Assembly: GCA_965140585.1 (NCBI GenBank)
Contig: OZ223272.1
Location: forward strand, 1-64,000
Direction: 5' to 3'
DNA length: 64,000 bases
Source of the DNA: Spirochaetia bacterium
GTDB taxonomy: Bacteria > Spirochaetota > Spirochaetia > UBA9216
This document shows, in pieces, positions 600 to 63,255 of the stretch. Positions within the stretch are counted from its first letter, which is position 1. The number at the start of each line of letters is the position of its first letter. A program made the position numbers and the translations under genes. The notes below the pieces were generated by a model, which saw only the letters and a list, made by a program, of their open reading frames with translations, made no database searches and was not told the origin of the DNA.

Positions 600-629
600 C
601 AGTCATTCCTCTTCAGTGCAGCGCTCAGC

Positions 630-1898: not shown

Positions 1899-1899
1899 C

Positions 1900-11798: not shown

Positions 11799-12795
11799 TT
11801 AAAAGTTCATGCAGTTTTTCCCGGATAAGCTTTTTATCGGGCAGCTTTAATTGATATTCGGCTATCAAAGCGGGTGATAAATTACGGGAAAGGGCGTATT
11901 CCACGACTTCATCGTCCTTGTCACGGCAAAGAAGAATGCCTATACTCGGGTTTTCATGAGCCTTTTTAACGTCCCTGTCCAGAGCTTCCAGATAAAAATT
12001 AAGCTGTCCCAGGTGGTCGGGTTTAAACTTGCCTATTTTCAATTCAAACGCTATCAGAGCAGAAAGCTCCCTGTGGAAAAATAAAAGATCAATATAAAAA
12101 TCCTGGTTGCCAACCTGCAGGCGGTATTCTTCACTTATAAAGATAAAATCTTTTCCAAGCTCAAGAATAAAGTTCTTCATATTTCTCACAAGCGATCTTT
12201 TAACCTCATTTTCATTGTGAGTCTCCGGCAACCCTAAAAACTCAAGCACATAGTTATCTTTAAAAATATGACCGATGCCAAAATGAGATTCTCTCAACAC
12301 AGGTGAGAGTTTTGTACTGCCGAAAATTGCCCGTTCAAAGTAGGCTGAATCAATTTGCCGTTCCAGTTCACGTTTGCTCAGCTTGTTCTCAATTACCATT
12401 TTAATATAGAATTCCCTTTCCGCATCTGTTTTACAGCGTGAAAAGATAGTAAGATTATGCGACCAGGGCAATTCTCTCACCAGCGGTGAGAGTTTTTCAT
12501 TCTCATGGTAGGTTTCAAAAAACTGCTTCATACGCCAGAGGTTTTTATCACTGAAACCTTTTATTCCCGGATCATTTTCATTGATATATCGGGCCAGTTC
12601 ACTTACAACACTTTTACCCCAGGAAGCTGATTTTACCTTATTACTGATGTACTCCCCTATCTGCCAGTATAATTCAATAAGTGTAGTATTGATCTGACTA
12701 TATGCTTTCTGCCGCTGCAGGTGTATCAGCTTAAGAAGGGCATCAAAATCATTTTGCATAACACTATCTTTACTCATATGCACCCAATCCGGCAA
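11767..12795 (-). CDS. YhcG/DUF1016 PD-(D/E)XK nuclease family protein
   Basis: LYWQIG, LPWSHN, YIDLLFFHR, ELKIGKF and ENPSIGILLC motifs. Confidence 0.9.
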   Translation of the reverse strand: MPDWVHMSKDSVMQNDFDALLKLIHLQRQKAYSQINTTLIELYWQIGEYISNKVKSASWGKSVVSELARYINENDPGIKGFSDKNLWRMKQFFETYHENEKLSPLVRELPWSHNLTIFSRCKTDAEREFYIKMVIENKLSKRELERQIDSAYFERAIFGSTKLSPVLRESHFGIGHIFKDNYVLEFLGLPETHNENEVKRSLVRNMKNFILELGKDFIFISEEYRLQVGNQDFYIDLLFFHRELSALIAFELKIGKFKPDHLGQLNFYLEALDRDVKKAHENPSIGILLCRDKDDEVVEYALSRNLSPALIAEYQLKLPDKKLIREKLHELLIEQAWEEKDE

Positions 12796-15766
12796 TCTCC
12801 CTCCCGCCTGCCAGCTTTTTTAACAGCGAGATCAGATCTTCCATTAATTCCAGCTCCTTCTTTGTCCGCTCTTTCCAGCTTAGCTCAAGAGGTTCCAGTA
12901 AATCGCTTAGCTTCTCGCCGTCAAATACCATACGCTCGATAATTTCATCAACAAAAGCCTGTAATACCTGAGCATCAAGTCCATATTTACGTGCAGTATC
13001 TGCCATTTCTTTCGCGGCTTTTTCAGTCTTGAACTTCTGATAACCGTCTTTTATTTCCTTTTCATTGAGGGCTTCACCGGCTTTCAGGGTATTGATGTAT
13101 GCAATAATATCTTCCCGCTCTTCCATCAGATTGGCACTGGAACAAAGCATACCAACCAGCTGTTCGCGGTTCATCTTCTGCTTCTTTGGCTCACTCTGGG
13201 TGAATTTGGAAATGAGAGACATAATATAGTCATAGTCGATGATTGCCGAGGAGAACAGTATAAACTCAAAATCCAACTGTGCAACCTCAGAATCAGGATC
13301 GGTAGTGGATTTTTGCTGCTGTTCCTTTAGCTTATGGGCAATTTCGATATAAGAACTCCTGAATGAGCGTAATTGATCCTCTGATATAAGCTCATTCATC
13401 TGCTCTTTCTGTTCAATAGTCAAATCTGTATACTGATCCAACTGTGTTTTAAGGCGCTGAACTTCCTTAAACTGATTTATAAAACTTATACGGGCAGTAT
13501 CACCTTTGAGGTTATAGACTTCTTCCGGCTCGCATGCCAGCTCCTTGTCTTTCATAAAAGCATCCAATGCGGAAACTGCTTTTTTATACTTTTCAATTAC
13601 AACAGGAGCCGGATCAACCAGCCATATTGCTTTCGATTTCCCTGTCTCCTCGCCGGAAAAAAGTGCTATAGCAGCATCCACTTCCTTAGTCTGGCTTCTG
13701 AAATCAAGAATATTGCCATAGGGTTTAGTATCGTTTAACACACGGTTTGTTCTTGAGAATGCCTGTATCAAACCATGCTGCTTTAGATTCTTATCAACGT
13801 ACAGGGTATTCAGATACTTTGAATCAAAACCGGTTAAAAGCATATCAACCACTATTGTCAAATCGATCTTATTTTTATGGGGATAATCGGCATTGCTGTA
13901 TTTATGATCTTTGATTCTTTTTTGAACATCCTGATAGTACAAATCAAATTCATTTATCCGATGATTAGTACCGTACTGCTCATTATAATCAGCAATAATG
14001 GCTTTTAAAGCCTCTTTCTTTTTCTCCGGATCCTGTTCATTATCTGCTTTTTCCTGAGGCAGATCTTCCTGAATCTGCTGAACATCCCTGTTTCCTTCTG
14101 CAGGCGGAGAAAAGACGCAAGCGATGTTCAGGGGGCGATAATTGTCATCATGCTGCATACTTTTTATCTGGATTGCTTTAAAAAGTTCATAATACTCTAT
14201 GGCATCATTTATGGATCCCGTAGCAAGCAGGGCATTGAATCGCCTTGTATTGGTAGCGGCATCGTGTTTTTCCATTATGGATTCCACAACCGCCTTTTTA
14301 TTAGCTGCATCTGATGATGCGGCTTTTTTCTTGTCATCAGGTTTAAAATAGTCAACATGAAAGCGCAGAACATTCCCGTCATCAATCGCATTAGTAATGG
14401 TATATGCATGCAGAAGTTTTTCAAAAATATCTTCGGTAGTTTTGTATGATGCCTGGGTTCCATCAATCTGCCTGTATGTTGCGTTTTCCTCAAATATAGG
14501 AGTACCTGTGAATCCGAAAAGCTGTGCCTTGGGGAAAAATTCTTTTATAGCCTTGTGATTATCCCCGAACTGTGAACGGTGGCATTCATCGAAGATGATA
14601 ACGATCCTTTTATTCCTTAGCGGCATCAACCTTTCCTTATAGGTCAGTTTACCGCTTTCTTTGCTATTCCGATTACGCTTACTGTTTTCATCCAGGGCGA
14701 GACCAAGTTTCTGGATGGTAGAGACGATAACCTTATCAGAATAATCCTCTGACAACAGGCGCTGTACCAGTGTTTCTGTATTCGTGTTCTCTTCAACACA
14801 GCCTTCCTGAAACTTATTAAATTCTTCCCTTGTCTGTTTATCGAGGTCTTTCCGGTCAACCACAAACAGGCATTTCTCAATGTCCGGATTATCCTTCAAC
14901 AGGGTTGATGCCTTGAAAGATGTCAGTGTTTTCCCGCTTCCGGTGGTATGCCAGATGTATCCATTGCCCCGGTTCTGATGAATGCAGTCCACAATAGCCT
15001 TTACTGCATAGATCTGATAGGGTCTCATGATCATCAGTTTCTGTTCGCTCACCACAAGTACCATATAACGGCTAATCAATTGGCCCAGCGTACATTTGGC
15101 AAGAAATTTCTCGGCAAAATCGTGTAGATGAGTAATTTTTTTATTGGCTTCATTAGCTAGCTGATAAATTGGTAAAAATCTTTCATCCGCATTAAATGCA
15201 AAATGATCTTTATGGTTATTGGCAAAATAGTAGGTATTGCTTTCATTACTGACAATAAAAAGCTGCATAAAACAAAGCAGAGAGTTTGTATAGCCGTTGC
15301 CCGGATCGTTTTTATATTCAACTATCTGCTCCATCGCCCGTTTGGGTGTAATTTGTAGGGTTTTAAGTTCAATCTGAACAGCAGGAACCCCGTTGATTAA
15401 AATGACTACATCATATCGATGATGGCTGTTTTCCGTATTCATTCGCAGCTGATTGATGACTTCGAACTCGTTTTTACACCAGTCTTTAATGTTTACAAGT
15501 GTATACTGAAGTGGCGTATCGTCATCTCGGCGAAAAGTGTTTGTTTCCCGCAACGTTTTAGCTGCTGTGAATACATCCGCAGTAATAATTTCATCCCTTA
15601 GCCTTGCGAACTCGGAATCACTCAGATTTACTTTATTGAGTTTTTGAAAATGGTCCCGAAAATTGACTTCAAGAGATGCTTTATCCCGTATGTCATTACG
15701 ATATGTGTATTTAAGGTCTTTTAGTTTTAAAATAAAATCTTCTTCAATCTGCTGTTCTTTTTTCAT
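12770..15766 (-). CDS. hsdR: Type I R-M restriction subunit
   Basis: QIELK nuclease motif; HTTGSGKT, DECHRSQ, FTGTP, MLLTGFD and QAFSRTNR helicase motifs. Confidence 0.95.
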   Translation of the reverse strand: MKKEQQIEEDFILKLKDLKYTYRNDIRDKASLEVNFRDHFQKLNKVNLSDSEFARLRDEIITADVFTAAKTLRETNTFRRDDDTPLQYTLVNIKDWCKNEFEVINQLRMNTENSHHRYDVVILINGVPAVQIELKTLQITPKRAMEQIVEYKNDPGNGYTNSLLCFMQLFIVSNESNTYYFANNHKDHFAFNADERFLPIYQLANEANKKITHLHDFAEKFLAKCTLGQLISRYMVLVVSEQKLMIMRPYQIYAVKAIVDCIHQNRGNGYIWHTTGSGKTLTSFKASTLLKDNPDIEKCLFVVDRKDLDKQTREEFNKFQEGCVEENTNTETLVQRLLSEDYSDKVIVSTIQKLGLALDENSKRNRNSKESGKLTYKERLMPLRNKRIVIIFDECHRSQFGDNHKAIKEFFPKAQLFGFTGTPIFEENATYRQIDGTQASYKTTEDIFEKLLHAYTITNAIDDGNVLRFHVDYFKPDDKKKAASSDAANKKAVVESIMEKHDAATNTRRFNALLATGSINDAIEYYELFKAIQIKSMQHDDNYRPLNIACVFSPPAEGNRDVQQIQEDLPQEKADNEQDPEKKKEALKAIIADYNEQYGTNHRINEFDLYYQDVQKRIKDHKYSNADYPHKNKIDLTIVVDMLLTGFDSKYLNTLYVDKNLKQHGLIQAFSRTNRVLNDTKPYGNILDFRSQTKEVDAAIALFSGEETGKSKAIWLVDPAPVVIEKYKKAVSALDAFMKDKELACEPEEVYNLKGDTARISFINQFKEVQRLKTQLDQYTDLTIEQKEQMNELISEDQLRSFRSSYIEIAHKLKEQQQKSTTDPDSEVAQLDFEFILFSSAIIDYDYIMSLISKFTQSEPKKQKMNREQLVGMLCSSANLMEEREDIIAYINTLKAGEALNEKEIKDGYQKFKTEKAAKEMADTARKYGLDAQVLQAFVDEIIERMVFDGEKLSDLLEPLELSWKERTKKELELMEDLISLLKKLAGGREIAGLGAYE

Positions 15767-27564: not shown

Positions 27565-27765
27565 TCAGTCACGTATTCTTGACGATTTCACGAACGAGGG
27601 ACAGTGCTTCCCTGTTGCCTGATAGAGTGATACCGAGGGCAGCTGCTTCCCCTTAAAACCGAACATCGTACAGGAACGCGGGAATACAGGATCCCAGCTT
27701 ACCTTAAAATATTCACATTTCAGACAGTTTGGTGCCCTCTCCGGTGCTGCAGATCCATTGTTCAT
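27565..27765 (-). CDS. Small conserved Cys-rich protein
   Basis: NCLKCEYFKVSWD..FPRSC..FGFK...P......G..CPSF pattern. Confidence 0.7.
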   Translation of the reverse strand: MNNGSAAPERAPNCLKCEYFKVSWDPVFPRSCTMFGFKGKQLPSVSLYQATGKHCPSFVKSSRIRD

Positions 27766-27814
27766 ATTTAGAATATCGTCTGTTCATGCTATATTATCAA
27801 GGAGGAGAGGGCAT

Positions 27815-28553
27815 ATGTTAAGTGAAAGTGAACTGAGGCGGTATTCGAGACAGCTTCATCTGGATGATGGGATTAAGATTGATCAGGAAAGGCTTAAAGA
27901 TTCACGTGTCATGATAGCCGGTGCAGGAGGTCTTGGAAGTCCTGTTTCTATGTACCTGGCTGCTGCCGGGGTCGGAACACTTGTTATATGCGACAATGAT
28001 GAGGTGGAACTATCCAATCTCAACCGCCAGATTCTTCACAGAACAGCCGGCATCGGCAGGCTGAAAACAGATTCAGCAGCAGAAAGGCTCAGTGGGCTAA
28101 TTCCTGAAATAAGTATAATAACCTATAACACAGATATTTCAGACAGTATTGAAGAAGCCGCGGCAAACTGCGATTTAATCATAGACTGTCTGGACAATAT
28201 CGCTACTCGTTATGTTATAAACGGCTACTGCATGAAACACGGTGTCCCCCTCCTCCACGGCGGGGTTCGGGGACTTGCCGGACAGGTTTCAATGCTCATG
28301 CCGCCTGAAACAGCCTGTCTGAGGTTGCATATTCCCTGAAGACATCGGAAATAAAAACCCGATACCGATCCTCGGCTCAACAGCCGGAATAACAGGTTCA
28401 ATCCAGGCAACCGAAGCAGTCAAATACCTGTGTACAAAAAAAAGCAGCCTGAAAAACAGGCTGCTGATATTCGACGGAACCGAATGGGAGTTTACAAGCA
28501 TTGAGCTTTCAAAGAACCCGGCCTGTCCGGCATGCGGAATGTCCGGAAAATGA
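27815..28553 (+). CDS. ThiF/MoeB/HesA adenylyltransferase; 1-nt indel at ~28326
   Basis: RYSRQ, GAGGLG and SNLNRQ motifs. After the shift the frame reads CIFP...GSTAGITGSIQATEAVK...NPACPAC; SD before ATG 27815. Confidence 0.88.
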
Positions 28554-35365: not shown

Positions 35366-36724
35366 TTATAGCTTTTCTTTATGCATTTTGTTAAGCAGTT
35401 TTAATTCCTTTACCGCCATCGGCAGGGTGAGGATAAAACTCAGAATATCAGCAAGAGGCTGTGCAATTGCCACACCGTTGATTCCAATAAACCGGGGAAG
35501 AATCAGCATAGCCGGGATAAGAAAAAGCCCCTGCCTTGCCGATGAAAGAACTCCGGCCTGAAGCCCCTTTCCATGAGCCTGAAACATTGCAGCAAAGCAG
35601 TTCTGAACTCCGACAAAGATAAGGGTAATACTGGCGAATCGCATGAATTTTATTCCGGCTGTCATCACCTCCGGATCGGAGGTAAAAATCCCTACAATAA
35701 ATCTGGTAAAAACCAGAAAAACTGTTGACATAAAAAGCCCGAAAACGGTGTTCCAGGAGACCGCCTTTTTAACCGTTTGAATTACCCTGTCATACTGCCT
35801 TGCGCCGTAATTGAATCCGGCAAGAGGCTGAAGGCCCTGTCCTATACCGAAGAAAACCATCATAGTCAGTGAAACGACCCGCAGAGTAATTCCCACTCCG
35901 GCAACCGCGTAGTCGCCGAACATGGATGCGGCAAGATTTGTAACTCCCATTGCACCGCTTGTAAGAAGCTGTCTGATTAATGTCGGGGTTCCGATAGCCA
36001 TAATCTGTTTGTACATAGCCGCTGTAGGTGAAAAATCCTTCAGCCGCAGCTTAAGGATGCCTTTTGAGAAAACAAAATATCGGAGAAGGTAGAGCGTGCT
36101 TATAAGCTGGGCAGTAATGGTTGCAGCGGCTGCACCGGCAAGCCCCATCTTAAAAACAAACATAAAAACGGGATCAAGAATCATGTTAAGACCGCCGCCT
36201 AATATCAAGCCGCGGCTGCTGTAACCGGCAGCACCTTCGGCACGAAGCATATTGTTCAGGCACATGTTTATAATCTGAAAAACCGAACCGCCGATGATAA
36301 TCCTGCCGTAAATTACAGCCCTGTCCATTATGGAATCGGTTGCCCCGAAAATCCGGAGTAAAGGTACAATGAAAATATTGCCAAGCACGGCGAAGGCTAT
36401 TCCAATAACCAGGGTTGTATAGAAGGCGGTTGAAGCCGAAGCCCTTGCTTCTTTGGGCTTTTCCTCACCGAGCTTTCTTGAAATCATTGAACCGGCCCCC
36501 ATGCCGAAAGTCAGTCCGATTGCTCCGATAAGCATAAATATCGGAAAAACGACTGCAGAAGCGCCTATTGAAGGTGTATCATTTAACAGGCCAATAAAAG
36601 CGGTATCTACTACATTGTAAACGGCATTAACAAGCATGGCTGTTGCGGCGGGGACGGCAAGGTTTCTGAGTGCGGCGCCAATATTCCCGCTTCGAAGCAT
36701 TTCGGTTCGTTCATTTTTATCCAT
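35366..36724 (-). CDS. MATE family efflux transporter
   Basis: YNVVDTAFIG, NMILDP and GLQPLAGFNYGA motifs; start MDKN at 36724. Confidence 0.92.
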   Translation of the reverse strand: MDKNERTEMLRSGNIGAALRNLAVPAATAMLVNAVYNVVDTAFIGLLNDTPSIGASAVVFPIFMLIGAIGLTFGMGAGSMISRKLGEEKPKEARASASTAFYTTLVIGIAFAVLGNIFIVPLLRIFGATDSIMDRAVIYGRIIIGGSVFQIINMCLNNMLRAEGAAGYSSRGLILGGGLNMILDPVFMFVFKMGLAGAAAATITAQLISTLYLLRYFVFSKGILKLRLKDFSPTAAMYKQIMAIGTPTLIRQLLTSGAMGVTNLAASMFGDYAVAGVGITLRVVSLTMMVFFGIGQGLQPLAGFNYGARQYDRVIQTVKKAVSWNTVFGLFMSTVFLVFTRFIVGIFTSDPEVMTAGIKFMRFASITLIFVGVQNCFAAMFQAHGKGLQAGVLSSARQGLFLIPAMLILPRFIGINGVAIAQPLADILSFILTLPMAVKELKLLNKMHKEKL

Positions 36725-36740
36725 ATGAAATTCAGGATAC

Positions 36741-37151
36741 TTGGCGATGAAAAACAAATCAAGTAATATGAGGAAAGTATTTTCGGAGTTGCCGATGATT
36801 GAGAACACTTATCTGGATAAATTTAAAAATCTGCCTGAAGACCCTGCCGCCGAGGCTATAAAACAGACAGCCGGAGAACTTGAAATGCTCAGCTTCAGCC
36901 CTACACTACTGATAGATACACCTGATTTTCTGTTCTTCACAAAGACCGGAATTATAGCTGAAGCAGAAAGAGTTGCAGGGTTTCCGGATGAAAAACTGCC
37001 TGAGTTCAGCAATGAAAGTTTTAATGATTCAAATGATTTCCGCAGAAAGCACATTGATCTTCTATATTATTACTACGAGCTTCTCTCAAGGCTAAGACTT
37101 AATATACCGGAAGCCTGGGACTATGTGCATGAACTTTATGAGGATGACTGA
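36741..37151 (+). CDS. Hypothetical protein
   Basis: ORF fills the gap between MATE and the membrane module; acidic C-terminus EAWDYVHELYEDD. Confidence 0.6.
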   Translation: MAMKNKSSNMRKVFSELPMIENTYLDKFKNLPEDPAAEAIKQTAGELEMLSFSPTLLIDTPDFLFFTKTGIIAEAERVAGFPDEKLPEFSNESFNDSNDFRRKHIDLLYYYYELLSRLRLNIPEAWDYVHELYEDD

Positions 37152-37170
37152 GCAGATTTGATGATGTAAA

Positions 37171-39057
37171 TCATTTTCTAATCATTACATCTTCATACAG
37201 TGCAAGATGCCAGCCTTCAAGGTTCGAGAAGGCTTTTCGTTCCGGGCTTTTAATCGTCCCTATGCCTGAAGTTTCAAGAAATTTTCTGATAGTCTGAATT
37301 CTTTTATATATTTTCTGGTAATGGGCACAGGAACTGGCTTTGCAGCCAAGGGAACAGCCCTCTGCGGTTTCGGGCTCAAGGTGCTCAAGGATTTCGGAAC
37401 AGTAGAGGGTCTCATCGTCCTTGGTAAGCAGCATTTTAAGTATTTCCATATTTGTCTCACTCAACCCTGCAAGCAGAGGTCTGCCCATAAAAAGAACACT
37501 GCCGTTTCTCTGTTCAAGAAGCTTTCCGGGCAGGGTAAAAAATATTACTGACAGCACAAAGAATATAATCAGAAGAATACGGTCGGCCATGACGGCCAGG
37601 ATATCAGGTATAAACCTGTCTGTTGCCTGAAACCCGGCAGACAGGGGCATATCCCTGGAAATAGAGAGAATAACCATAAAAAACCAGATCAGCCAGTAAA
37701 TAATGCCTGAAGTTCTGTCCCTGTTTATCAGTCTGCCGCTTCTGAATTCCACCGCGGGGACCCCTAGAAGAAAAATAATCGTACATATAACAAAATTACG
37801 AATTCCCGAGAAGAGCGCAAATATTTCATCATGCCGGTTAAGAGAGTAAGCAAGAAAAAACAGAAACACTGCAGAAATAATCTGTGTCCGGAAGATAATT
37901 TTCCGTTTTCTGATAAACAGAGGCAGAACCAGAATAGATAAGACCATGCAGAAGAGAATAATAAATTTCATACGGCTGTTTACCGGTGTCTCGAAGGCGA
38001 AAAGCAGGGAACCGCTGACCGCAATGATTACGGAAAGGATAAACCAGACAGGACCAGGTTTTTTCCTTGGTTTCACAGTATTCAGAACAGCTTTTTCTGA
38101 AAGAAGGGCTGAAAAACTACCTTCGGTAATATCCCTGAACACAGATTTTGTCCTTCTATGTTCTACAGCAACATCAGGATAGAGAATAAGACCCCAGCCT
38201 TCCTCAACCACATTACGTTTGTTTTCGGGGGGGATAATCATGCCAATACCGTAGTTCTCGAGTTTCTTTCCAAGATCAGTTACATAGCGATAGACTGCAG
38301 CGTATCCGGGACACAGCGACGCCTTGCAGGCGGCAACGTCATCACAATTCATGCCTTTAAGATCCGCCCCAGTGCTCCGGAAATAATCACGGCAGCGTAT
38401 ATTCCTGCCCTGCTCCACAGCAGCAGTCAGCATCTGTATCTGGGGCTCGTTAAATGAGGCGGTAATATCCTCATTCCTGAAGAAGAGTCTGCCTTTGAAA
38501 AAAATCAGCTTCTTTGAGGCGCTGCTTTTCAGGTTCATCAGAAACAGTACGGCCGGAATATAATTGGCGGCCTCATAAAACCCCGAAACAAGCTTCCAGG
38601 GTTCAGCTATCTGATGGCTGGAAAATAGAAAATAGATTCTCATAAATAGAAGCATCAGCGAGTATGATGCAAGCAGAATGATGATAAAATTCAATCCGCG
38701 GATCAGCTGGTCAAAGACCTGCCGCCTGAAGAAACGGAAAATCAGGCTGTAACTCAGAGCAAGAAGCGGGCCCGGATAGTAGAATAAAAACATGGAATAG
38801 TAAGCTCTGTCGAGTAGAAATCCGGAGGCAGTTCCTGTTGCTGCAATCCAGAAAAATATAAGTATTGAAAATCCGACAACCCTGCTTCTGGATTTTATAC
38901 AGAAAAGAATCAGAATGAGTCCAAACTGGATAAAAAACAGGAATAGACTGTACGCCGCCGAAAACCCGTTTCGTCCATCCATTGTCAGCCCTGTAATCAG
39001 TACGGGAATAGAGGAGTATAAGGAAAGAAGTACGGATATAATTGAAGGCTTTCGCAT
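37171..39057 (-). CDS. Membrane protein with two tandem [~6 TM + Cys-containing winged-helix-like] units
   Basis: Internal duplication: C..C..CKASLCPGY..Y....LE..GIG.I.PPE...EGW.L.LY.DV versus C..C..CKASSCAHY..IYKRI..FLE..GIG.I.SPE...EGW.L.LYEDV. Paralog at 42952-44774. Confidence 0.8.
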   Translation of the reverse strand: MRKPSIISVLLSLYSSIPVLITGLTMDGRNGFSAAYSLFLFFIQFGLILILFCIKSRSRVVGFSILIFFWIAATGTASGFLLDRAYYSMFLFYYPGPLLALSYSLIFRFFRRQVFDQLIRGLNFIIILLASYSLMLLFMRIYFLFSSHQIAEPWKLVSGFYEAANYIPAVLFLMNLKSSASKKLIFFKGRLFFRNEDITASFNEPQIQMLTAAVEQGRNIRCRDYFRSTGADLKGMNCDDVAACKASLCPGYAAVYRYVTDLGKKLENYGIGMIIPPENKRNVVEEGWGLILYPDVAVEHRRTKSVFRDITEGSFSALLSEKAVLNTVKPRKKPGPVWFILSVIIAVSGSLLFAFETPVNSRMKFIILFCMVLSILVLPLFIRKRKIIFRTQIISAVFLFFLAYSLNRHDEIFALFSGIRNFVICTIIFLLGVPAVEFRSGRLINRDRTSGIIYWLIWFFMVILSISRDMPLSAGFQATDRFIPDILAVMADRILLIIFFVLSVIFFTLPGKLLEQRNGSVLFMGRPLLAGLSETNMEILKMLLTKDDETLYCSEILEHLEPETAEGCSLGCKASSCAHYQKIYKRIQTIRKFLETSGIGTIKSPERKAFSNLEGWHLALYEDVMIRK

Positions 39058-39746
39058 CAGCTGCCCCTTCCGCCGAATGCCAGTCTTGCTACAATTATCG
39101 GAGTGATAAAAAACAGGACTGACAGGACACCGTACTCAGGATATGTTATTGCAATAATTACTGCTGCAAAGCTGGCCGGAAGAGCGTCGGCATAATAGGG
39201 TTTGAATACATCAATAAGGTATCGGAAAAAAGAACGGCCTTCTTCAAGTCTGTAAAAAAGGGCGTTGAAAACACAGGAAACCAGAAAGAAAACAGGGGCG
39301 GTGATTAAAGCCGGAAGGATGGAGGTTCCTCCTGCTGCAGCCGCTGTATATATGTAGAGCCGATCCACCAAAAAAAGAATTATTATAAAATGCGAAACAT
39401 TAAAAATAGTCAGTCTGGGCGGTGTTGTAAGAATATAACTGAGGCCTTTCTCCTGTTTTCGTACGGTAAAAAGTGCTGTAGCAAGTATGCAGAACAAAGA
39501 AGCAACAGGCCCGCCGGAGAGGTAGGCTCCGAAAAAAACAGCCTCTATTGTTGAGATATAGATGTTTCCGCTGGAAATATACACCGAGAAGGATTCACTT
39601 AAAACAGCAAGAACAGACCAGACGATAATAACAGAGATACTGTAATCGGCAGGCTGACTTCCTGAAAAAATAAGAATTGCGCACAGAACAGCTGCTGTGG
39701 AAATAATGATAAGAAAAAGCAGAGCGCCGCGCGGATAAACATTCAT
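39057..39746 (-). CDS. Stand-alone 7-8 TM membrane sensor-like protein (resembles the N-terminal membrane domain of HD-GYP proteins)
   Basis: AVLSES...YISTIEAVF..G..L.GGP...FN.SH...PIIVARL; stop overlaps the downstream ATG. Paralog at 42258-42955. Confidence 0.75.
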   Translation of the reverse strand: MNVYPRGALLFLIIISTAAVLCAILIFSGSQPADYSISVIIVWSVLAVLSESFSVYISSGNIYISTIEAVFFGAYLSGGPVASLFCILATALFTVRKQEKGLSYILTTPPRLTIFNVSHFIIILFLVDRLYIYTAAAAGGTSILPALITAPVFFLVSCVFNALFYRLEEGRSFFRYLIDVFKPYYADALPASFAAVIIAITYPEYGVLSVLFFITPIIVARLAFGGRGS

Positions 39747-40044
39747 AAATCAAAACTCCACAACTCGTTTCCGGACGAATTTGTAAAGAAACATGTTAAA
39801 CAAAGCTGAAACGGAAAGCTGCGTCCTGCCTCTATGATACATTTTCAAAAGGACAACAGTCAACAAAAACGCAAAAGTATCGGGAGAAAAATTATGAACC
39901 GGAGCAAAAAGTGCAGTTTTAAAGAAACTAAAATTTAAAATATGGCAGTCAAGGCTGAATATAAACAGCCGGATTTAATCGCCCTGTTGAAGAAAGAAGC
40001 CTCCAGAACTATACTGACTGATGTAAATCCGGAGGCATCTTTTT

Positions 40045-41295
40045 ATGGACAGCAGTCTTTCATCATTACTTTCAAATCTCGGCCTTGGCAACTCTCTTGC
40101 TGGTATTCTGAGTATACTTCTTCTTTTTGCCGGACTGATTTTAGCAAGCCTTATCCTTAATTTTATAATCAGCAGAATTGTAATATCAATTCTTTCCCGC
40201 ACGGTTAAACGCACGAAAACAAAGTGGGATGACATACTGCTTGAAACAGGGCTTTTTCAGAAGGCTGTAAAGATAGTCCCCGGACTGTTTCTATATTTCA
40301 GCTTTCCCCTTGTTTTCCGGGAAGCCGGCAGCCTTGAATCATGGTTTCAGAGACTGGTACTTGCCTACATAATCCTTGTTGTTCTGAATGTATTCAACTC
40401 CTTTCTTACCGGAGTAAACCGAATATATACTACCTATGATATTTCCAAAAACAGGCCAATCAAGGGCTACCTGCAGATCGTCAGAGTCATTGCCGCCATT
40501 ATGGTGATTGTTCTGGTCATCTCGATCCTGATCGACCGATCAGCCCTCGGATTGCTGTCGGGAATCGGAGCCCTTTCGGCAGTTCTTATGCTGGTATTCA
40601 AGGATTCAATACTCGGGCTTGTAGCCGCCATTCAGCTGTCGGGAAACGATATGGTAAGAATCGGCGACTGGATTAGCGTGCCGGACCAGGGCGCGGACGG
40701 TGATGTAATTGATATCAAGCTCCAGACAGTTACCGTACAGAATTTCGATAAAACCATAGTAAGTGTGCCCATCTACAATCTAATTTCAGGTTCATTTACA
40801 AACTGGCGCGGGATGAGTGAATCCGGCGGGCGAAGGATAAAGAGGCATATTAATATAGATATGAACAGCGTTAAATTCTGCACTGATGACATGCTGGAAG
40901 ATTTCCGGCAAATTGATCTCATTAGTGATTTCATACCAAAGAAAAAAGAAGAGATTGATGCCCATAATGCAGGAAAGGGGGTCAATACCGCCCGCGAACT
41001 CAACGGACGTCGGATGACCAACCTGGGAGTCTTCAGGGCCTACCTTGCAGCTTACCTGCGGGATAATCCAGCCATACACGAAAATATGACCTTCCTTGTC
41101 CGCCAGCTTCAGCCGACCGACAAGGGTATCCCGTTGGAAATATACGTATTCAGCCGTGACCAGGTCTGGGCGAACTACGAAAACATACAGGCAGATATAT
41201 TCGATCATATACTTGCCTCAATACCCTTCTTCGAGCTTGCAGTGTTTCAGTCTCCATCAAGCCTTGATTTCAGAAAGAGTTTTGCCGGGAAATAA
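40045..41295 (+). CDS. Mechanosensitive channel, MscS family (YbdG/MscM-like)
   Basis: FKDSILGLVA, VRIGDWI, NWRGMSESGGRRIKR and VRQLQP motifs. Confidence 0.93.
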   Translation: MDSSLSSLLSNLGLGNSLAGILSILLLFAGLILASLILNFIISRIVISILSRTVKRTKTKWDDILLETGLFQKAVKIVPGLFLYFSFPLVFREAGSLESWFQRLVLAYIILVVLNVFNSFLTGVNRIYTTYDISKNRPIKGYLQIVRVIAAIMVIVLVISILIDRSALGLLSGIGALSAVLMLVFKDSILGLVAAIQLSGNDMVRIGDWISVPDQGADGDVIDIKLQTVTVQNFDKTIVSVPIYNLISGSFTNWRGMSESGGRRIKRHINIDMNSVKFCTDDMLEDFRQIDLISDFIPKKKEEIDAHNAGKGVNTARELNGRRMTNLGVFRAYLAAYLRDNPAIHENMTFLVRQLQPTDKGIPLEIYVFSRDQVWANYENIQADIFDHILASIPFFELAVFQSPSSLDFRKSFAGK

Positions 41296-41399
41296 TCAAC
41301 TTAGTTGTTTCCGTACGATAGTACTCTCAATTTATTGAAAAGTGACATTCTTTATAATATCCATATCATAAAGAATGTTAATTTTGAGAGGAAAGTAAT

Positions 41400-42146
41400 A
41401 TGAAAAAAACTATCATCCTTATTTTATGCTTTTTAACAGTATTATTCTCAGCATGCGATCCAGACGCCGGAGCGGATCTGCCTGAAGAAAAACCGACCGA
41501 ATCTACAGGCACACCTGCTCCGACACCCAGTGTATCCGAGCCTATCGTGTACTGTGCCGGGATAGACGGAACAACCGGAGTCTACTGGAAGGATAACGGT
41601 TATGATGCCATAGAACTGGTAGTCCTTGAACACGGATGGACTTCCGGTGCTGAATCAGACTCTACTGTGAACGATATATTGGTTTCCGACGGAAAAGTAT
41701 ACATGGCAGGAGTCTATTTGGACACAGATACTCCATATCCGCAGGCAAGTCTGTGGACTGCTGACACTGATACTTCCTCACCAAATATAGTCAGAACTAC
41801 TCTGTCTAATGACAATAAACAAGCAGAGGCTAAAGCTGTTTTTGTCTACAGCACCGATGTTTATATATGCGGCTCAGGAGAGAGAGATACAAGCACTTCA
41901 AAGGCCATGTACTGGAAAGACAGGGAAATAAAGGAAGTCATCGGTGCCCCGGAAGGTTCACATGCTGTGGCAATCGCGGTTCCCAGCGCCAATGTTTACA
42001 CAGCAGGTTCTCATGGTATTGAATCCTACACTGCAACAAACGGACCGACTACCACTGTAGCCGCTTATTGGATGGACAATATTAAGTATGATCTTACAAA
42101 TGGGTCAGAAAATGCCCATGTATATGATATGACAGCTGTACGATAG
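41400..42146 (+). CDS. Lipoprotein with repeated VY.AG...YWKD beta-propeller-like units
   Basis: Lipobox LFSAC, P/T linker, repeats GVYWKDN, ASLWTAD, AMYWKDR and AAYWMDN. Confidence 0.75.
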   Translation: MKKTIILILCFLTVLFSACDPDAGADLPEEKPTESTGTPAPTPSVSEPIVYCAGIDGTTGVYWKDNGYDAIELVVLEHGWTSGAESDSTVNDILVSDGKVYMAGVYLDTDTPYPQASLWTADTDTSSPNIVRTTLSNDNKQAEAKAVFVYSTDVYICGSGERDTSTSKAMYWKDREIKEVIGAPEGSHAVAIAVPSANVYTAGSHGIESYTATNGPTTTVAAYWMDNIKYDLTNGSENAHVYDMTAVR

Positions 42147-42173
42147 GAATCACAGTGTTTAAAGGGTAAAGTA

Positions 42174-42205
42174 AAAGCCTGCGGCAGTCTCCGCAGATTT
42201 TCTTT
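42174..42205 (+). terminator. Probable intrinsic terminator after the lipoprotein gene
   Basis: CTGCGG-cagtct-CCGCAG followed by ATTTTCTTT. Confidence 0.5.
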
Positions 42206-42206
42206 A

Positions 42207-42235
42207 TTGACGGACTCAAAAATATCTCCTATTGT
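42207..42235 (+). promoter_or_regulatory. sigma70 promoter of the second membrane module
   Basis: TTGACG-N17-TATTGT followed by SD GGGGAG and ATG 42258. Confidence 0.55.
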
Positions 42236-42257
42236 TTTAGGGGAGAAAAACAATTTA

Positions 42258-42955
42258 ATGGAATCCCGAAAACTAAAAGTATATCTTTTTTATCAGTATT
42301 AAGCGTATCTGCAGCAGCAATTCTTATATTCACCGTAAAGAAGTCTGATTTTACAGCATTGGTTCCGGCAGATATCATCATCTGGACTATTGCAGCTGTA
42401 CTAAGCGAATCACTCGCAATCTATTATGTGAACGGCAGCTTCTTTATCTCACCGATAGAAGCTGTTTTCTGCGGATGCCTCCTGTCCTGCGGACCGCTAA
42501 CCGCGGCAATCACAATATCTCTTACTTTTCTGTTAATAATAACAAAGGATGAAAACCGCTTTTGGCATGTCTTTAACACAGCAGGAAGATATATACTGTT
42601 AAATATATCGCATCATATACTGATTATGCTTGTTCTGTATCATGGCTATCATTTTATGACTACTTCAACAGCAAAGTTTCAGATCATTACTGCGATGATT
42701 ATTGCACCTTTATTCTTTACTCCATCCTGTTTGATCAATGCATTTTTCTACAAGGTTGAAGACGGAGAACCTGTCAAGCAGGCCTTCCTTGATATGTTCG
42801 ATCCTTATTATCAGACTGCTGTTCCGGCAAGCCTTGCAGCGGTAATAATTGCTATGGCATATGCAGAATACAGATATTTTGCAATTCTGATACTCATTTC
42901 ACCATTTATTGTAACACTTATCACGATGAGATCGGAAGCGAGGAAAAGCCGTTGA
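42258..42955 (+). CDS. Paralog of the 39057-39746 membrane protein; 1-nt indel in T-run at ~42290
   Basis: AVLSESLAIY..G..FISPIEAVF and PASLAAVIIA..Y.EY are shared with the first copy; N-terminus MESRKLKVYLF. Confidence 0.75.
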
Positions 42956-44774
42956 AACTCCTGCTTATTTTATACACCTCACTTCCGGCTCTGATAGCAG
43001 CAGTAATTTCAGCAGATAATTTATTTGTAAACGTATCAGGCACAGCCCTTTTTATCCTGCAAATAGTTATTGAGTTCTTTCTTCTCAACCTGGAAAAGAA
43101 ACGTCCCCTTATTATTATGACTTCAGTGCTTGCAGCGTTTTTTTCAGCCATAGTGATCTTTAGCGGATTTATTCATCAATTGATTTATTTCAGACTTTTA
43201 ATCAATCTATACCCGGGCCCTCTTCTTACAATTATCTTTGTTCTGATATTTAAACTTTCCCGTTCCCAGGATTTCTCAAAGCCGTCAAAAGGGCTGAACC
43301 GCCTTATACTTCTTCTCTTTTCGTATTCAGCTATGCTCATAATATTGCTGATACATAGCCTCCTGCAGACACCGTTGTCTGCAGGAGAAACTCTGTTGAA
43401 GCTTTATGAGGCTTTTAACTATCTACCAGCCGTTTACTTTCTATGGAAGCTTAAAAACGCATTCCTTTCACACATATTTATCGAAAATGATGAGATCAGA
43501 TATAGAAACGAAGATATTTCGTCATTTTTCAGCGAAATAGAATTATCAATCCTGAAAAAACTTATTACAGGAAGCGGAAGAATCCGATGCCGTGACATTG
43601 TTCCCATATTAAACAATAATAATGAACGCAGACAGTTTAACTGTTCTCCGGGCTCCAAGCTGGCAACAGACTGTCCAGCCTATCCGATTATATACAGGTA
43701 TATAAAAAGTCTTGATAAAAACCTCGGAAACCTGAGCATTGGAATGATTATTCCGCCTGAAAACAGAAAAAATGTGATTGAACTGGGCTTGTTCTTCAAG
43801 CCGGAAAAGGGTGTTCAGATTGTTAAGCGCAGGCCTTTTCCATTGCGAATTCCTGTTGTCAGTGAAGTATACAAGTCAGAGTCCCGGACTGATTCGGGAT
43901 TGATAACCATGCTCCTGCTTTGCATTACCGGCAGCTCCGCGCTGGCTGTTGAAGCCGTATACGGAGCAGAAGGAACACTGACCGGGGTTATCGTACCGCT
44001 TCTGATTGCAGCATTCTGTTTCATTATTATTTTTACGCTGGGCAGACCGGTAAAAGTAACAGGAAAATCCATAATAATTTCGATTAACTCGTTGGTAATA
44101 ACTACGTTTTTATTTATTAGTATACTCTCAGAACAGGAAGTTCTGATGCTGGCGATGAAAGCAATTGTACTATTCGTTCTTTGCTTGTTCCCAGTCTTGA
44201 GAAGCGCAGTAATATCAGCATGCTGAGAGAAAGAGCCTCCGACTGGCTATTCTGGCTCATATGGTTTTATATGGTGCTGCTGGCACTGTTTATTGAACCC
44301 GGGCTCACATTCGGCATCAGCAGCACTGGAATGAATCCCCCTATATTCCTGTCATTCTTCATTAACAGAATAATGTTACTACTGCTGTTCTCTCTTTCTG
44401 CACGATTCTTCAGTATGCCTCAAAAACCTCTTGTCATTAAAGATTCCATTCTGTAATTGAACGAACGACCGCTTCCTGCCTGTTCCGGAAAGGATAATTT
44501 TATAATTATTAGAGAATTCATAAACAATCATGAAGCACCCCTTCATTGCTACCGAATTCTGGACATGCTGAATAAAGAAGAAAGATCAGACTGCGGCGGG
44601 TACTGTAAATCGAGTATCTGCCCCCACTACCAGAAAATTTATAAAAGGATACAAACAATACGGAAATATTTTCAAACCACGGGAATAGGAACAGTGACAA
44701 GCCCGGAGCGGAAGGCTGAATCACATCTGGAAGGATGGAGCCTTGTTCTGTATGATGATGTCTATATAAAGTAA
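42952..44774 (+). pseudogene. Paralog of the 37171-39057 tandem TM/Cys-wHTH protein, interrupted by a frameshift (~44180) and an in-frame TAA (44454-44456)
   Basis: ORFs 42952-44226, 44181-44456 and 44457-44774 align consecutively with the 628-aa paralog (YPGPLL, YEAFNY.PAV, IGMIIPPEN, WLIWF.MV, HYQKIYKRIQTIRK). Confidence 0.75.
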
Positions 44775-44847
44775 AACCTTCGGAAACGGCTTATGAACGA
44801 TATGAGGCGGTATATCCACAACAAGGCTGAACTGATATACTTGGACC

Positions 44848-45402
44848 ATGAAAATAGCAGAAAAGACAACAGTAACGTTAAACTACATTTTAAAGGCAAA
44901 AGACGGCACCGTCCTGGAAACTACCAGTGAACAGGGTCCTGTAACAATACTCTTCGGTCACGAAATGTTCCCCAAGGCGGTAGAAGCAGCACTTGAAGGA
45001 AAATCAGCCGGAGATTCCGTGACAATTGAACTCGAAGCAAAAGACGGCTTCGGCGAAGTAATTGATGAATACATTGCCCAGGTTCCGATTTCTGAATTTG
45101 ATCAGCCTGAAAACCTTGAGGTTGGAATAGATATTATTGCCAGCGACGGTGAAAAAGAGATGATTGTGACGGTAAAAGCAATTGACGACGACATGGTTAC
45201 AATTGATGCCAATCACCCTTTTGCCGGAATGGATATCACCTTTGAAATGGGTGTAATGGAAGTCCGTGAAACAACAGAGGAAGACCTGGCCCACTTTTAT
45301 CATGACCATGATCACGAATGCGGCTGCGGATGCGGTCATGAAGGTGATGATGACTGCGGCGACGGCTGTGGTGATGAAGGCTGCTGCGGAAGCTGCGGCT
45401 GA
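44848..45402 (+). CDS. slyD: FKBP-type peptidyl-prolyl isomerase with His/Cys-rich tail
   Basis: IDANHPFAG motif; tail HDHDHECGCGCGHEGDDDCGDGCGDEGCCGSCG. Confidence 0.93.
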   Translation: MKIAEKTTVTLNYILKAKDGTVLETTSEQGPVTILFGHEMFPKAVEAALEGKSAGDSVTIELEAKDGFGEVIDEYIAQVPISEFDQPENLEVGIDIIASDGEKEMIVTVKAIDDDMVTIDANHPFAGMDITFEMGVMEVRETTEEDLAHFYHDHDHECGCGCGHEGDDDCGDGCGDEGCCGSCG

Positions 45403-46118
45403 AAAGAAAACTGCAGGCGCTTTCCTGCTGTTTACAGAGTCTGGAGGATAGGATAATATTATCGGGATTTACTACTTTTAATAATACATCAGGGATAAAT
45501 CCCTGATGTAGAATTTCACTATAATTCCAGTACAATTGGGAAATTTTCTATTTTAACTGGATTAAACCACCAACATTATCGTTCAAGCTCGTAAGAATAT
45601 AATAAATCAAGCCGAGAGCATGTCTAATAAAATGGAAATATTGCTAAATTTTTGAAAAATTGATTCTATTTTCTTCGCCACAGTCCATCATCTGCATACT
45701 CTTCATTTATTAAAAATAAATCAACTTTGGTATTCTTTATCGATACAGGAAAATTTAACTGCATGACTTATACACACCTCATAGCGCTCATAAATCCGTT
45801 TTCTAACCCCCTCGACACCAATTACGAAAGCATTTGCGTCTCCATCTTTTCTATTTCTATTTATCTCTGCCAATTTGAGCAAGTCACATAGGTGTGGGTG
45901 GGGGTTGAGATAAACATCACAGTTATTTTCCTTACAATATTCCCAGGTCTGTACACAACTATCAGCAAAAAGTAATGCCTGGGAAACAGCCCATTGAACA
46001 CTGTAAGGGTAACCGTCCTTTCCCGGATACACACCAGGTCCGAATACACCATACCCCCCAAAAAACATAATTCTATGTTTTTGCCCTCTATCCATAACTT
46101 CAAAGGAATAATTTAAGC
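45363..46118 (+). repeat. Direct repeat copy 1 (slyD 3' end, intergenic region and 3' part of the MBL gene)
   Basis: Matches 63245-64000 at an offset of 17882 bp; about 20 differences by manual comparison. Confidence 0.95.
45485..45510. terminator. Inverted repeat between convergent slyD and MBL genes
   Basis: TACATCAGGGAT-aa-ATCCCTGATGTA; also present at 63367-63392. Confidence 0.5.
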
Positions 46119-62441: not shown

Positions 62442-63255
62442 TTATTTATTTAAAGAAAGGAGCTCAATAAGTTTCGAAGCAGCTTTTTTCAAATAGCGGT
62501 TCCGGTTCCAGGCAACACCGGCTTCGATTTCCAGATGCTCCGCAAGCGGGATCACAGCGACAGATTTAAGTTTTTGTGCCAAATCTGCGAAGAAAAAGGT
62601 TACGCCCATTCCTTCTTTAACAAGTCCGGCCACAGTGCCTATCTAACTCGAAGAAAAAACAATTTTCGGGTCAAATTTCAACCTTGCACACTCACTCATA
62701 ATCAGCTTTCTTGTGTACGTGTCTTCATGAAAGAGAATAAAAGATTCATCTTTTAAATCCAGAAGGGAGACCTCCTGTTTACCGGCGAAGCGGTGGGTCA
62801 GCGGCAGACAGACAAGGATTTCTCCCCTGCAGATCAGCCGATGCGCGAGTGAAGGAGCAAGATTTCTGCTTATTAGAATCCCCAGATCGAACTCACCTTT
62901 TTCCAGAAGTGTAGATATACTCAATGAGCCCTCTTCGATGACTTCCATTTCAACCTTTGGATTACTTCTCTGGAATTCAGCCAGTTTTGCGGGAAACAAT
63001 ACACTCATCATCGGTGTTATGCCGATTTGCAAACGGCCCTGAGGCTCATCTGGGTAATCAAACATCATATTTTTCGTTTCTGAAACCAGCGAAAGGATCC
63101 GTTCCACTTGCACGAGCATCTGTCGCCCCTCCTGTGTAATAGAAATCCTTTTGTTGATTCGGTGTAAAAGTGCGAGTCCTAATTCTGCTTCAAGCTGCTC
63201 AATACCGACCGTTACGGACGGCTGAGAAACATTAAGAGATTCAGCGGCTTTGGTG
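62442..63255 (-). pseudogene. LysR family regulator, N-terminally truncated at the repeat junction, with an in-frame TAG at 62643
   Basis: Begins mid-HTH at TKAAESLNVSQPSVTVGIEQLEAELG; ORFs 62643-63119 and 62442-62633 are in the same frame. Confidence 0.85.

Follow-up and report, generated by a model that had tools for sequence, protein, structure and literature searches.

A two-gene cassette of free-living spirochaetes as a candidate polytopic transcription regulator with a membrane partner

Transcription regulators anchored in the cytoplasmic membrane are known mostly from the bitopic ToxR/CadC type, and how they gain access to DNA and dimerize are open questions. In ToxR-type regulators, the winged helix comes first in the chain, before one transmembrane (TM) helix and a periplasmic sensor domain, and this sensor pairs with its periplasmic counterpart on a bitopic partner. 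CadC, also bitopic, senses pH through its periplasmic part, and its partner LysP is an amino-acid permease encoded elsewhere. Here we describe a two-gene cassette that is found, as one intact and one broken copy, in the region 37171..44774 of a 64-kb stretch of DNA (the whole stretch analysed, hereafter the window) of contig OZ223272.1 from a Spirochaetia bacterium (assembly GCA_965140585.1). The first gene encodes a small polytopic membrane protein and the second a large protein in which two six-helix membrane bundles alternate with two cysteine-bearing domains of predicted winged-helix fold. We consider it rather probable that this cassette encodes a transmembrane transcription regulator of new architecture together with a co-component in the membrane.

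Two sets of published work provide the frame for this comparison. The consulted part of a survey of transmembrane transcription regulators (PMC10269533) reports that 27% of these proteins have at least three TM regions, that the Spirochaetota are enriched in them and that their DNA-binding domains were identified by Pfam models. MASE9 is described, in the consulted part of a preprint (bioRxiv 10.1101/2021.11.05.467447), as a membrane sensor domain of eight segments, two of which form a short intramembrane hairpin, and as being fused to HD-GYP, GGDEF or GGDEF-EAL outputs. The layout that defines ToxR-like receptors, with the winged helix first and then one TM helix and a periplasmic sensor, is not that of the large protein, which is predicted to have twelve TM helices and a domain C-terminal to each bundle. 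The adjacent gene for a membrane partner, which marks a co-component, is present at all eight loci at which the cassette was found, with stop and start overlapping or abutting.

Copy 1 lies on the minus strand and comprises the following features (ORF, open reading frame; aa, amino acids).
39057..39746, minus strand: small gene, encoding a 229-aa polytopic membrane protein without a soluble domain (ORF list)
37171..39057, minus strand: large gene, encoding 628 aa in the order six TM helices, predicted winged helix, six TM helices, predicted winged helix (ORF list and AlphaFold2)
38518..39042, minus strand: first six-helix membrane bundle, residues 6–180 (AlphaFold2 helices and loop charges)
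38158..38511, minus strand: predicted winged-helix domain 1, residues 183–300, a beta/alpha domain (AlphaFold2, conserved residues and Foldseek)
residues 306–329 of the 628-aa protein: predicted disordered linker (AlphaFold2)
37534..38052, minus strand: second six-helix bundle, residues 336–508, with the conserved motif FWLIWFYMV (AlphaFold2)
37174..37533, minus strand: predicted winged-helix domain 2, residues 509–628 (512–627 in the AlphaFold2 domain; domain-only AlphaFold2 model and Foldseek)

The two genes overlap by one base: the TGA of the small gene and the ATG of the large gene have an A in common. These coordinates, sizes and the overlap are as described in an earlier reading of the bare DNA letters (hereafter the original prediction), and in our reading the large gene is translationally coupled to the small one. 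Neither Pfam nor NCBIfam has a family above cut-off for any of the six ORFs of both copies, in agreement with the initial observations that the cassette has no kinase, receiver, GGDEF or HD-GYP domain and that its architecture belongs to no named family. A candidate 136-aa ORF (36741–37151, plus strand) converges on the 3' end of the large gene and overlaps the long MatE ORF call. It has 85% protein identity to an ORF at 9904–10314 of a related locus (L001) and matches no Pfam, NCBIfam or PADLOC family.

Locus L001 belongs to a Spirochaetia metagenome-assembled genome (MAG), and its copy 1 proteins are 89–92% identical to those of the window. Between the two, the ratio of nonsynonymous to synonymous divergence (dN/dS) is 0.10 for the small gene and 0.08 for the large gene of copy 1 (0.02 and 0.015 for the neighbouring MatE and ABC-F genes). 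This indicates that copy 1 is under purifying selection, and that it is functional in the window is the best explanation. Synonymous divergence from L001 is uneven (i.e. 0.45–0.71 in copy 1, 0.11–0.19 in copy 2 and 0.20–0.37 in MatE/ABC-F), for which recombination, or different mutation and selection on codons, are possibilities.

Most relatives of the large protein become visible only by exhaustive searching. A word-indexed search returned the protein itself and one relative of 89% identity, while an exhaustive HMMER search returned 110 database proteins at E ≤ 1e-3, including 20 that reach E ≤ 1e-30. By length, the 110 comprise 15 proteins of 558–671 aa with the double layout, 70 of 280–430 aa and 25 shorter fragments. 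With these 110 matches for the large protein, and 12 (self included) for the small one, the gene pair is not a chance arrangement of ORFs. The two halves of the 628-aa protein are themselves homologous (BLASTP, E 1e-13, 25% identity over 178 aa), and the 70 single-module relatives match either half. On this evidence, the large protein is a tandem duplication or fusion of a unit of ~310 aa that consists of a six-helix bundle and a cysteine domain. Pfam finds no family above cut-off in any of 78 relatives. A plasmid collection searched with one single-module relative (P0035) gave no match, and PADLOC gave no match either, so a defence-system reading is unsupported.

The AlphaFold2 model of the full-length 628-aa protein, built from a 111-sequence alignment, has a mean predicted local distance difference test (pLDDT) of 88 and a predicted template modelling score (pTM) of 0.83, and agrees with the alternation of ~6 TM helices and cysteine domains that had been proposed. 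In a Foldseek comparison of this model with the PDB, all ten listed matches with a probability of at least 0.96 are OmpR/PhoB-type DNA-binding domains, from AdeR, SaeR, PhoB, RstA, RpaA, GlnR and CosR; the remaining matches, transporters and G-protein-coupled receptors among them, have probabilities of at most 0.25. Domain 2 modelled alone (pLDDT 91.7) gives the same picture: 32 of the 34 listed matches are DNA-binding domains of the OmpR/PhoB family or of SARP proteins (probability 0.85–1.00, target-normalized TM-score up to 0.69, best E 2.7e-3 with EmbR), and the other two are the winged helix of PurR. The membrane body, by contrast with its domains, has no credible fold match among those listed (probability ≤ 0.25). 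Among embedding matches of the second module in the ESM Atlas, the best lead scores 0.82 and one Trans_reg_C cluster 0.77. Both cysteine domains are thus predicted to have the OmpR/PhoB winged-helix fold, with an N-terminal beta-sheet, a three-helix core including the recognition helix and a C-terminal beta-hairpin wing in the model.

Each predicted winged helix carries four conserved cysteines (i.e. C222, C238, C244 and C249 in domain 1; C553, C568, C572 and C577 in domain 2). Every one of the 16 aligned full-length members has C222, C238, C249 and C553, at least 90% of them keep C244, C572 and C577, and C568 is near-invariant in the 111-sequence alignment. Other conserved residues of domain 1 are Y252, Y256, R257, P277, N279, K280, G287 and W288. 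In the model, one cysteine of each domain starts helix 2 and three lie in an enlarged stretch before the recognition helix. The feature extends to the single-module relatives, 69 of 70 of which have at least four cysteines within their last 125 residues, mostly as C...CxxC...KAxxC.

We then analysed the topology by the mean net charge of 14 segments in the 12 closest full-length homologues. The N-terminus, loops 2–3, 4–5, 8–9 and 10–11, the inter-module linker and the post-bundle segments carry +0.9 to +3.2, whereas loops 1–2, 3–4, 5–6, 7–8, 9–10 and 11–12 carry −1.2 to +0.2. For the even-numbered loops and post-bundle segments taken by themselves, the range is +1.1 to +3.2. By the positive-inside rule, this pattern predicts that the N-terminus lies inside and that both winged helices are cytoplasmic. 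Because the domains would then lie in a reducing compartment, the four cysteines of each domain are more likely a metal or redox site than disulfides, and they probably form a putative zinc site or other metal/redox site. At only 4–16 residues each, the outer loops leave no room for a periplasmic sensor domain.

The small protein has 12 database matches including itself, of 223–261 aa and 47–100% identity. A crude hydropathy scan finds six broad hydrophobic stretches, two of them of helical-hairpin length, which gives 6–8 TM segments where 7–8 had first been counted. The alignment shows conserved polar residues within these stretches (S52, S65, N116, H119, S157 and N161) and conserved aromatic residues (F71, F154, F164, Y165 and F181). 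In the ESM Atlas, 23 of 30 matches are MASE9-bearing clusters (top score 0.95), and 21–46% of the members of the nearest clusters carry MASE9. We call the small protein MASE9-like rather than MASE9 because the Pfam MASE9 model (PF20972) matches none of 13 small-protein members at E ≤ 10, the likeness coming from embeddings only. No permease family of Pfam or NCBIfam matches the protein or its 12 relatives, and a search of longer proteins found no fused forms, which is weak evidence. Homology between the small and large proteins was considered and ruled out (hhalign probability 0.3%).

A complex prediction that had been proposed as a check on the pair gave a score of 0.60 for the small and large proteins (best of three controls, 0.00), with agreement between runs in at least 75% of contacts and a partner pLDDT of at least 79. 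The mark set for this method is reached by 116 of 157 solved complexes and by 2 of 215 mismatched pairs; 18 of the 157 solved complexes and both passing mismatches reach it with scores of 0.60 or below. The score therefore lends weak support to a candidate contact between the two proteins.

Conservation of the pair was inspected in one genome per species, with a 12-sequence alignment as query. The scan found eight loci, all titled as MAGs of Spirochaetia, Spirochaetales, Sediminispirochaeta or Marispirochaeta, so that the known distribution of the cassette is so far confined to free-living spirochaetes. At all eight loci, and in both copies of L001, the small gene is immediately followed by the large one; the contig of L002 begins within the small gene. 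No gene neighbour is conserved beyond the pair. An apparent split of the large gene of L008 into two module genes was rejected as an artefact of masked N runs, since the gene corresponds to a full-length database protein (P0026). Two further observations concern the surroundings of the cassette: an ORF at 2160–2651 of L002, directly 3' of the large gene, contains a MASE3 membrane-sensor domain (E 8e-20), and L006 has a direct duplication of ~45 bases just upstream of the small gene (at ~7150–7250).

In identity matrices, the small and large proteins show one and the same division into two subtypes. One subtype unites copy 1 with L003 and L004 (50–55% identity in the small protein, 35–38% in the large one), the other copy 2 with L005 and L006 (50–58% and 42–43%, respectively), and the pairwise identities of the small and large proteins are correlated (r = 0.89 over 36 non-independent pairs). 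This indicates that the cassette is inherited as a unit and that its two copies represent an old split, as was first suggested from the divergence between the copies. The original prediction had also named three outcomes that would tell against it, namely genes that do not co-occur elsewhere, cysteine domains in the periplasm and full-length matches to a characterized family. The small gene adjoins the large one at eight of eight loci, both domains are predicted to be cytoplasmic, and our searches returned no such match.

Copy 2 lies on the plus strand, divergent from copy 1, and consists of two broken genes.
42258..42955, plus strand: small gene, broken by the loss of a single base from the T-run 42286–42291
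42952..44774, plus strand: large gene, broken; the TTG start overlaps the small-gene stop by 4 bases

Its homology to copy 1 is clear in tblastn alignments of the copy 1 proteins (39.8% identity over 216 aa for the small protein; 35.5% over residues 2–299 and 44.3% over residues 425–627 for the large one). The claim that the system is present twice in divergent orientation thus stands as to homology and orientation, but three inactivating lesions in copy 2 had gone unnoticed. In the small gene, the frame from ATG 42258 ends at TAA 42300 and the homologous frame resumes past the T6 run; in the large gene, the frame changes after 44187 and an in-frame TAA occurs at 44454–44456. The clean ORFs that remain are of 198, 424, 91 and 105 aa. 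L001 holds both copies, divergent as in the window, and its copy 2 is uninterrupted. The two copy 2 sequences are 93.4% identical in DNA, and the window differs by T7 to T6, a 10-base deletion and GAC to TAA, all three absent from L001. Homopolymer errors do not typically take the form of a 10-base deletion or of a two-base change to TAA. With dN/dS values against L001 of 0.19 for the small gene and 0.20 for the large gene, copy 2 looks recently inactivated. A terminator-like hairpin (42179–42196) follows the upstream lipoprotein gene and precedes a promoter-like sequence (TTGACG-17-TATTGT, 42207–42235), which suggests that copy 2 seems to have had its own promoter.

The DNA around the cassettes contains a recurrent short element, GTTTCCGTAC, which in the window occurs together with the following features.
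39834..39863, minus strand: sigma-70-like promoter of copy 1, TTGACT-18-TATCAT
39765..39794, minus strand: inverted repeat of the element, half-sites 39783–39794 and 39765–39776 with a 6-base spacer
41305..41316, plus strand: single element TTGTTTCCGTAC, 84 bases before the lipoprotein gene
41400..42146, plus strand: lipoprotein gene, 248 aa, a candidate target; its translation shows a signal peptide that ends in Cys

The element was spotted by eye before the statistical test, which covered 300 bases upstream and 120 bases downstream of the cassette at seven loci. L002, which has no upstream region, was excluded, and the 2,768 bases of its locus contain no match. The best-shared 10-mer in these flanks, with at most one mismatch, is GTTTCCGTAC at 7/7 loci, whereas in 100 shuffles that preserved mononucleotide composition only, the best 10-mer was shared by four loci (76 times) or five (24 times). 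Exact GTTTCCGTAC occurs once in the 64-kb window, at 41307 (expected 0.04; at least one occurrence in 4 of 100 shuffles).

Its arrangement differs between the subtypes. A promoter of the form TTGAC(T/G)-N17–18-TATCAT lies upstream of the small gene in copy 1 of the window and of L001 and in L003, L004 and L008 (the hexamers of the relatives were read by eye). Between this promoter and the small-gene ribosome-binding site, the same five cassettes have an inverted repeat of ATGTTTCCGTAC; the one upstream of copy 1 is a candidate operator. The spacer of the repeat is 6 bases long in the window, L001 and L003, 5 in L004, where the left arm is weak, and 26 in L008, i.e. 20 bases or about two helical turns more. 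Subtype 2 cassettes have a single site in place of the inverted repeat. In L001, it lies at 2892–2903, 92 bases upstream of the gene for a lipoprotein that has an FGE-sulfatase-like domain; in L005 and L006, it lies immediately after the large gene and before lipoprotein genes. The window's own lipoprotein gene (41400..42146) has no Pfam, NCBIfam or PADLOC match.

The two arms deviate from the consensus independently and without compensation. Compared with the reverse-complemented right arm, the left arm has 7–8 matches of 12 in L001, the window and L003, and a perfect 12/12 in L008. Since the arms deviate independently and single sites have no partner arm, a protein-binding site fits better than an RNA hairpin. 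Across 36500–45500, Rfam gives nothing at E ≤ 1 except one irrelevant microRNA row (E 0.29). An alternative reading of GGAAAC...CGTA as a promoter of an extracytoplasmic function (ECF) sigma factor was dropped on inspection: the ECF consensus spacing is ~16 bases, and here the CGTA-like bases abut GGAAAC.

Two side observations concern the element and the DNA between the copies. L008 has a third exact 12-mer ATGTTTCCGTAC at 1214–1225, a long way from the cassette, where a 254-aa ORF without known family is predicted to start; this ORF may be a further target. The inter-cassette spacer differs between the window (39747–42257), which has an MscS-like channel gene (40045–41295) and one unrelated lipoprotein gene, and L001 (2816–7311), in which two FGE-sulfatase-like lipoprotein genes surround an MscS-like channel gene.

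We infer DNA binding from the fold, the topology and the conserved flanking element. In the reading that we favour, the product of the first gene would be a stand-alone sensor module of the MASE9 kind, and the two covalently linked winged helices of the large protein would act as a built-in dimer on ATGTTTCCGTAC. The pseudo-dimer of DNA-binding domains in the original prediction is thereby retained as two predicted winged-helix domains per chain that would bind DNA. In the copy 1 subtype, the inverted repeat between the cassette promoter and the ribosome-binding site would provide autoregulation; in the copy 2 subtype, the single site beside the adjacent lipoprotein genes would provide control of those genes. 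Such binding would be compatible with a two-fold symmetry of the two domains about an axis perpendicular to the membrane. Because all outer loops are at most ~16 residues long, we propose that the signal may be sensed within the membrane by the 12-helix body and its small partner, and/or at the Cys4 sites.

A more specific proposal, which we regard as possible yet somewhat doubtful, is that the cassette represents a class of intramembrane-sensing regulators that combines a 12-helix chain, paired Cys4 winged helices, an obligate MASE9-like partner, control of itself and of lipoprotein genes, and single-module ancestors. Under this proposal, the membrane scaffold and the obligate partner would set the geometry of the two domains on the inverted-repeat operator, with half-sites that tolerate a spacer longer by two helical turns. 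In free-living spirochaetes, the system would regulate itself as well as the neighbouring genes for surface lipoproteins, and the ~70 single-module relatives would be homodimeric ancestors of the fused form.

Several points weigh against a DNA-binding regulator with this operator. Trans_reg_C (PF00486) is absent from the window ORFs (E ≤ 1), from 78 relatives (E ≤ 0.01) and from 86 members (E ≤ 10). Among these 86, no DNA-binding family recurs at E ≤ 10, the commonest weak match being DUF2408 (10/86). A sequence profile search of the PDB with the large protein gave nothing significant (best E 0.017, a designed helical protein), and no listed Foldseek match of the full model or of domain 2 reaches E ≤ 0.001. 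The winged-helix assignment is therefore made at the level of fold, without family membership. The weak complex score and the failure of the MASE9 model count on the same side, as do the composition-only shuffles. L005 and L006 are syntenic, so the seven loci are not seven independent lineages, and the only match of L007, which contains one mismatch, is found ~180 bases upstream within a called ORF of 107 aa. Direct repeats are the usual targets of OmpR/PhoB proteins, but the repeat of subtype 1 is inverted. Finally, the element could belong to another regulator. It is rather unlikely, in our estimate, that GTTTCCGTAC serves another regulator or acts as an element of the leader RNA, and that the cassette is a target, not the regulator. 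The operator is assigned by association only, and in subtype 1 the repeat is part of the transcribed leader, where it could form a hairpin; the arms of L008 match at 12/12. However, L005, L006, L001 and the window have single sites that lack a second arm, the arms of L001, the window and L003 (7–8/12) differ from the consensus independently, and the change of spacer from 6 in three loci to 26 in L008 amounts to about two helical turns. Rfam has no relevant match at E ≤ 1, and no other gene is conserved around the cassette as the source of such a regulator.

Other explanations concern the large protein itself. The cytoplasmic Cys4 sites could be the real sensors (e.g. a thiol, zinc or Fe–S switch), with the membrane body as an anchor and the small protein as an assembly or stability factor. 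Conservation of the four cysteines across the family, single-module relatives included, agrees with this, as does their placement where helix 2 begins and in the loop that leads to the recognition helix, since a change at these points would shift the latter helix; one listed fold match, RitR (5u8m), is a cysteine-based redox sensor derived from a response regulator. Yet conservation is as strong in the membrane parts and in the partner as in the domains, more than one would expect of a mere anchor, and Cys4 sites are often purely structural zinc sites, so that we think this unlikely. Quite unlikely, in our view, is that the 12-helix body is a transporter, enzyme or scaffold whose winged-helix-like domains are regulatory, protein-binding or a nucleoid tether, without transcription control. 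An internally repeated 6+6 arrangement of helices is a typical transporter feature, MFS and MATE transporters are among the weak Foldseek matches of the full model, and no sequence model calls the domain DNA-binding. The membrane parts also have conserved motifs of polar or aromatic residues, i.e. YPGPLL, YE.NY.PA and FWLIWFYMV in double-module proteins and HRD, EPR and YN.YN in single-module relatives. Against this, the transporter matches have probabilities of at most 0.25 and TM-scores of 0.13–0.19, Pfam and NCBIfam give no transporter family, the basic residues R257, K280, K585 and R586 are conserved at recognition-helix and wing positions, and the conserved DNA element travels with the cassette. 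That the cysteine domains are periplasmic, disulfide-bonded, ligand-binding ectodomains is highly improbable: four conserved cysteines could form two disulfides, but the positive-inside pattern of 14 segments in 12 homologues places both domains inside and their fold is that of cytoplasmic DNA-binding domains.

If the large protein is a regulator, it offers a natural fused dimer, with two DNA-binding-type domains in one polytopic chain. Without a periplasmic domain, sensing would have to occur within the membrane or at the Cys4 sites, and the partner would be a sensor-like membrane module that is otherwise described only as fused to cyclic di-GMP enzymes. Model-based censuses of transcription factors and signalling proteins will miss the family, which has no Pfam or NCBIfam model, and the ~70 single-module relatives suggest a larger unannotated family of membrane-bound winged-helix proteins. 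The candidate operator and the candidate lipoprotein targets make the hypothesis directly testable.

Elsewhere in the window, three adjacent ORFs at 279–3093 each match only part of a Pfam profile (i.e. an enoyl-CoA hydratase over positions 2–94 of 251, pieces of an acetyl-CoA hydrolase/transferase and an HpaB-like match from profile position 85). They appear to be successive broken genes from a CoA-dependent pathway, unless the breaks are assembly frameshifts. Within the window, G+C content is highest in the first 2 kb (0.51). A Type I restriction-modification locus with hsdM, hsdS and hsdR occupies 8857–15766, and a YhcG-like PDDEXK nuclease gene (11767–12795) lies between hsdS and hsdR. Two other ORFs are candidate truncated genes: a ThiF-like ORF (27758–28339) that covers only profile positions 1–162 of 238, and an ORF with a LysR substrate domain but without a helix-turn-helix (62643–63119).

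We finally compared the cassette with the known systems. Like ToxR/ToxS, VtrA/VtrC and TcpP/TcpH, as presented in the consulted part of PMC9214523, it would place an OmpR/PhoB-type winged helix at the inner face of the membrane. As with ToxR/ToxS-type co-components, the membrane partner comes from an adjacent, apparently co-transcribed gene and there are no phosphorelay domains. Unlike in the ToxR type, the predicted winged helices are C-terminal to six-helix bundles, two per chain and without a periplasmic domain, and the partner is polytopic and encoded upstream, so that the gene order is reversed. No sequence similarity to ToxR/ToxS, VtrA/VtrC or TcpP/TcpH was detected. With CadC/LysP, in the consulted part of PMC5430869, it would have in common a membrane-integrated OmpR-type regulator that depends on a polytopic membrane partner; unlike LysP, the small protein matches no permease family and is probably translationally coupled to the large gene. 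Of the ToxRS/CadC-LysP likeness in the original prediction, the predicted OmpR/PhoB fold (as in ToxR and CadC) and the adjacent membrane partner find support, but helix placement differs, a periplasmic domain is lacking and the partner is neither ToxS-like nor a LysP-type permease.

With transmembrane transcription regulators as characterized in the consulted part of PMC10269533, the large protein shares TM regions and a DNA-binding domain in one polypeptide, the latter here predicted by fold. The method of that survey would not pick it up because it has no Pfam match, and the main text of the survey, as far as consulted, contains no mention of two interleaved DNA-binding domains. The open-access literature searched holds no description of this architecture or of the element. 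At the level of the domain, the winged helices resemble OmpR/PhoB and SARP domains (PhoB 1gxp, AdeR 5x5l, SaeR 4ixa and EmbR 2ff4) in their sheet, three helices and wing (TM-score 0.5–0.69), but differ in an extra, cysteine-bearing stretch of ~15 residues between helix 2 and the recognition helix, a longer wing loop, the lack of a receiver domain and a position below every sequence-model threshold. The small protein is like MASE9, as described in the part of the preprint consulted (bioRxiv 10.1101/2021.11.05.467447), in being polytopic with short outer loops and with conserved aromatic and Asn/Ser residues in hydrophobic segments, and unlike it in standing alone (223–261 aa) beside a putative DNA-binding output protein. 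In brief, the cassette is not a categorically new mechanism but a new architecture and an unannotated family, which lies outside the Trans_reg_C, MASE9 and ToxR-like definitions.

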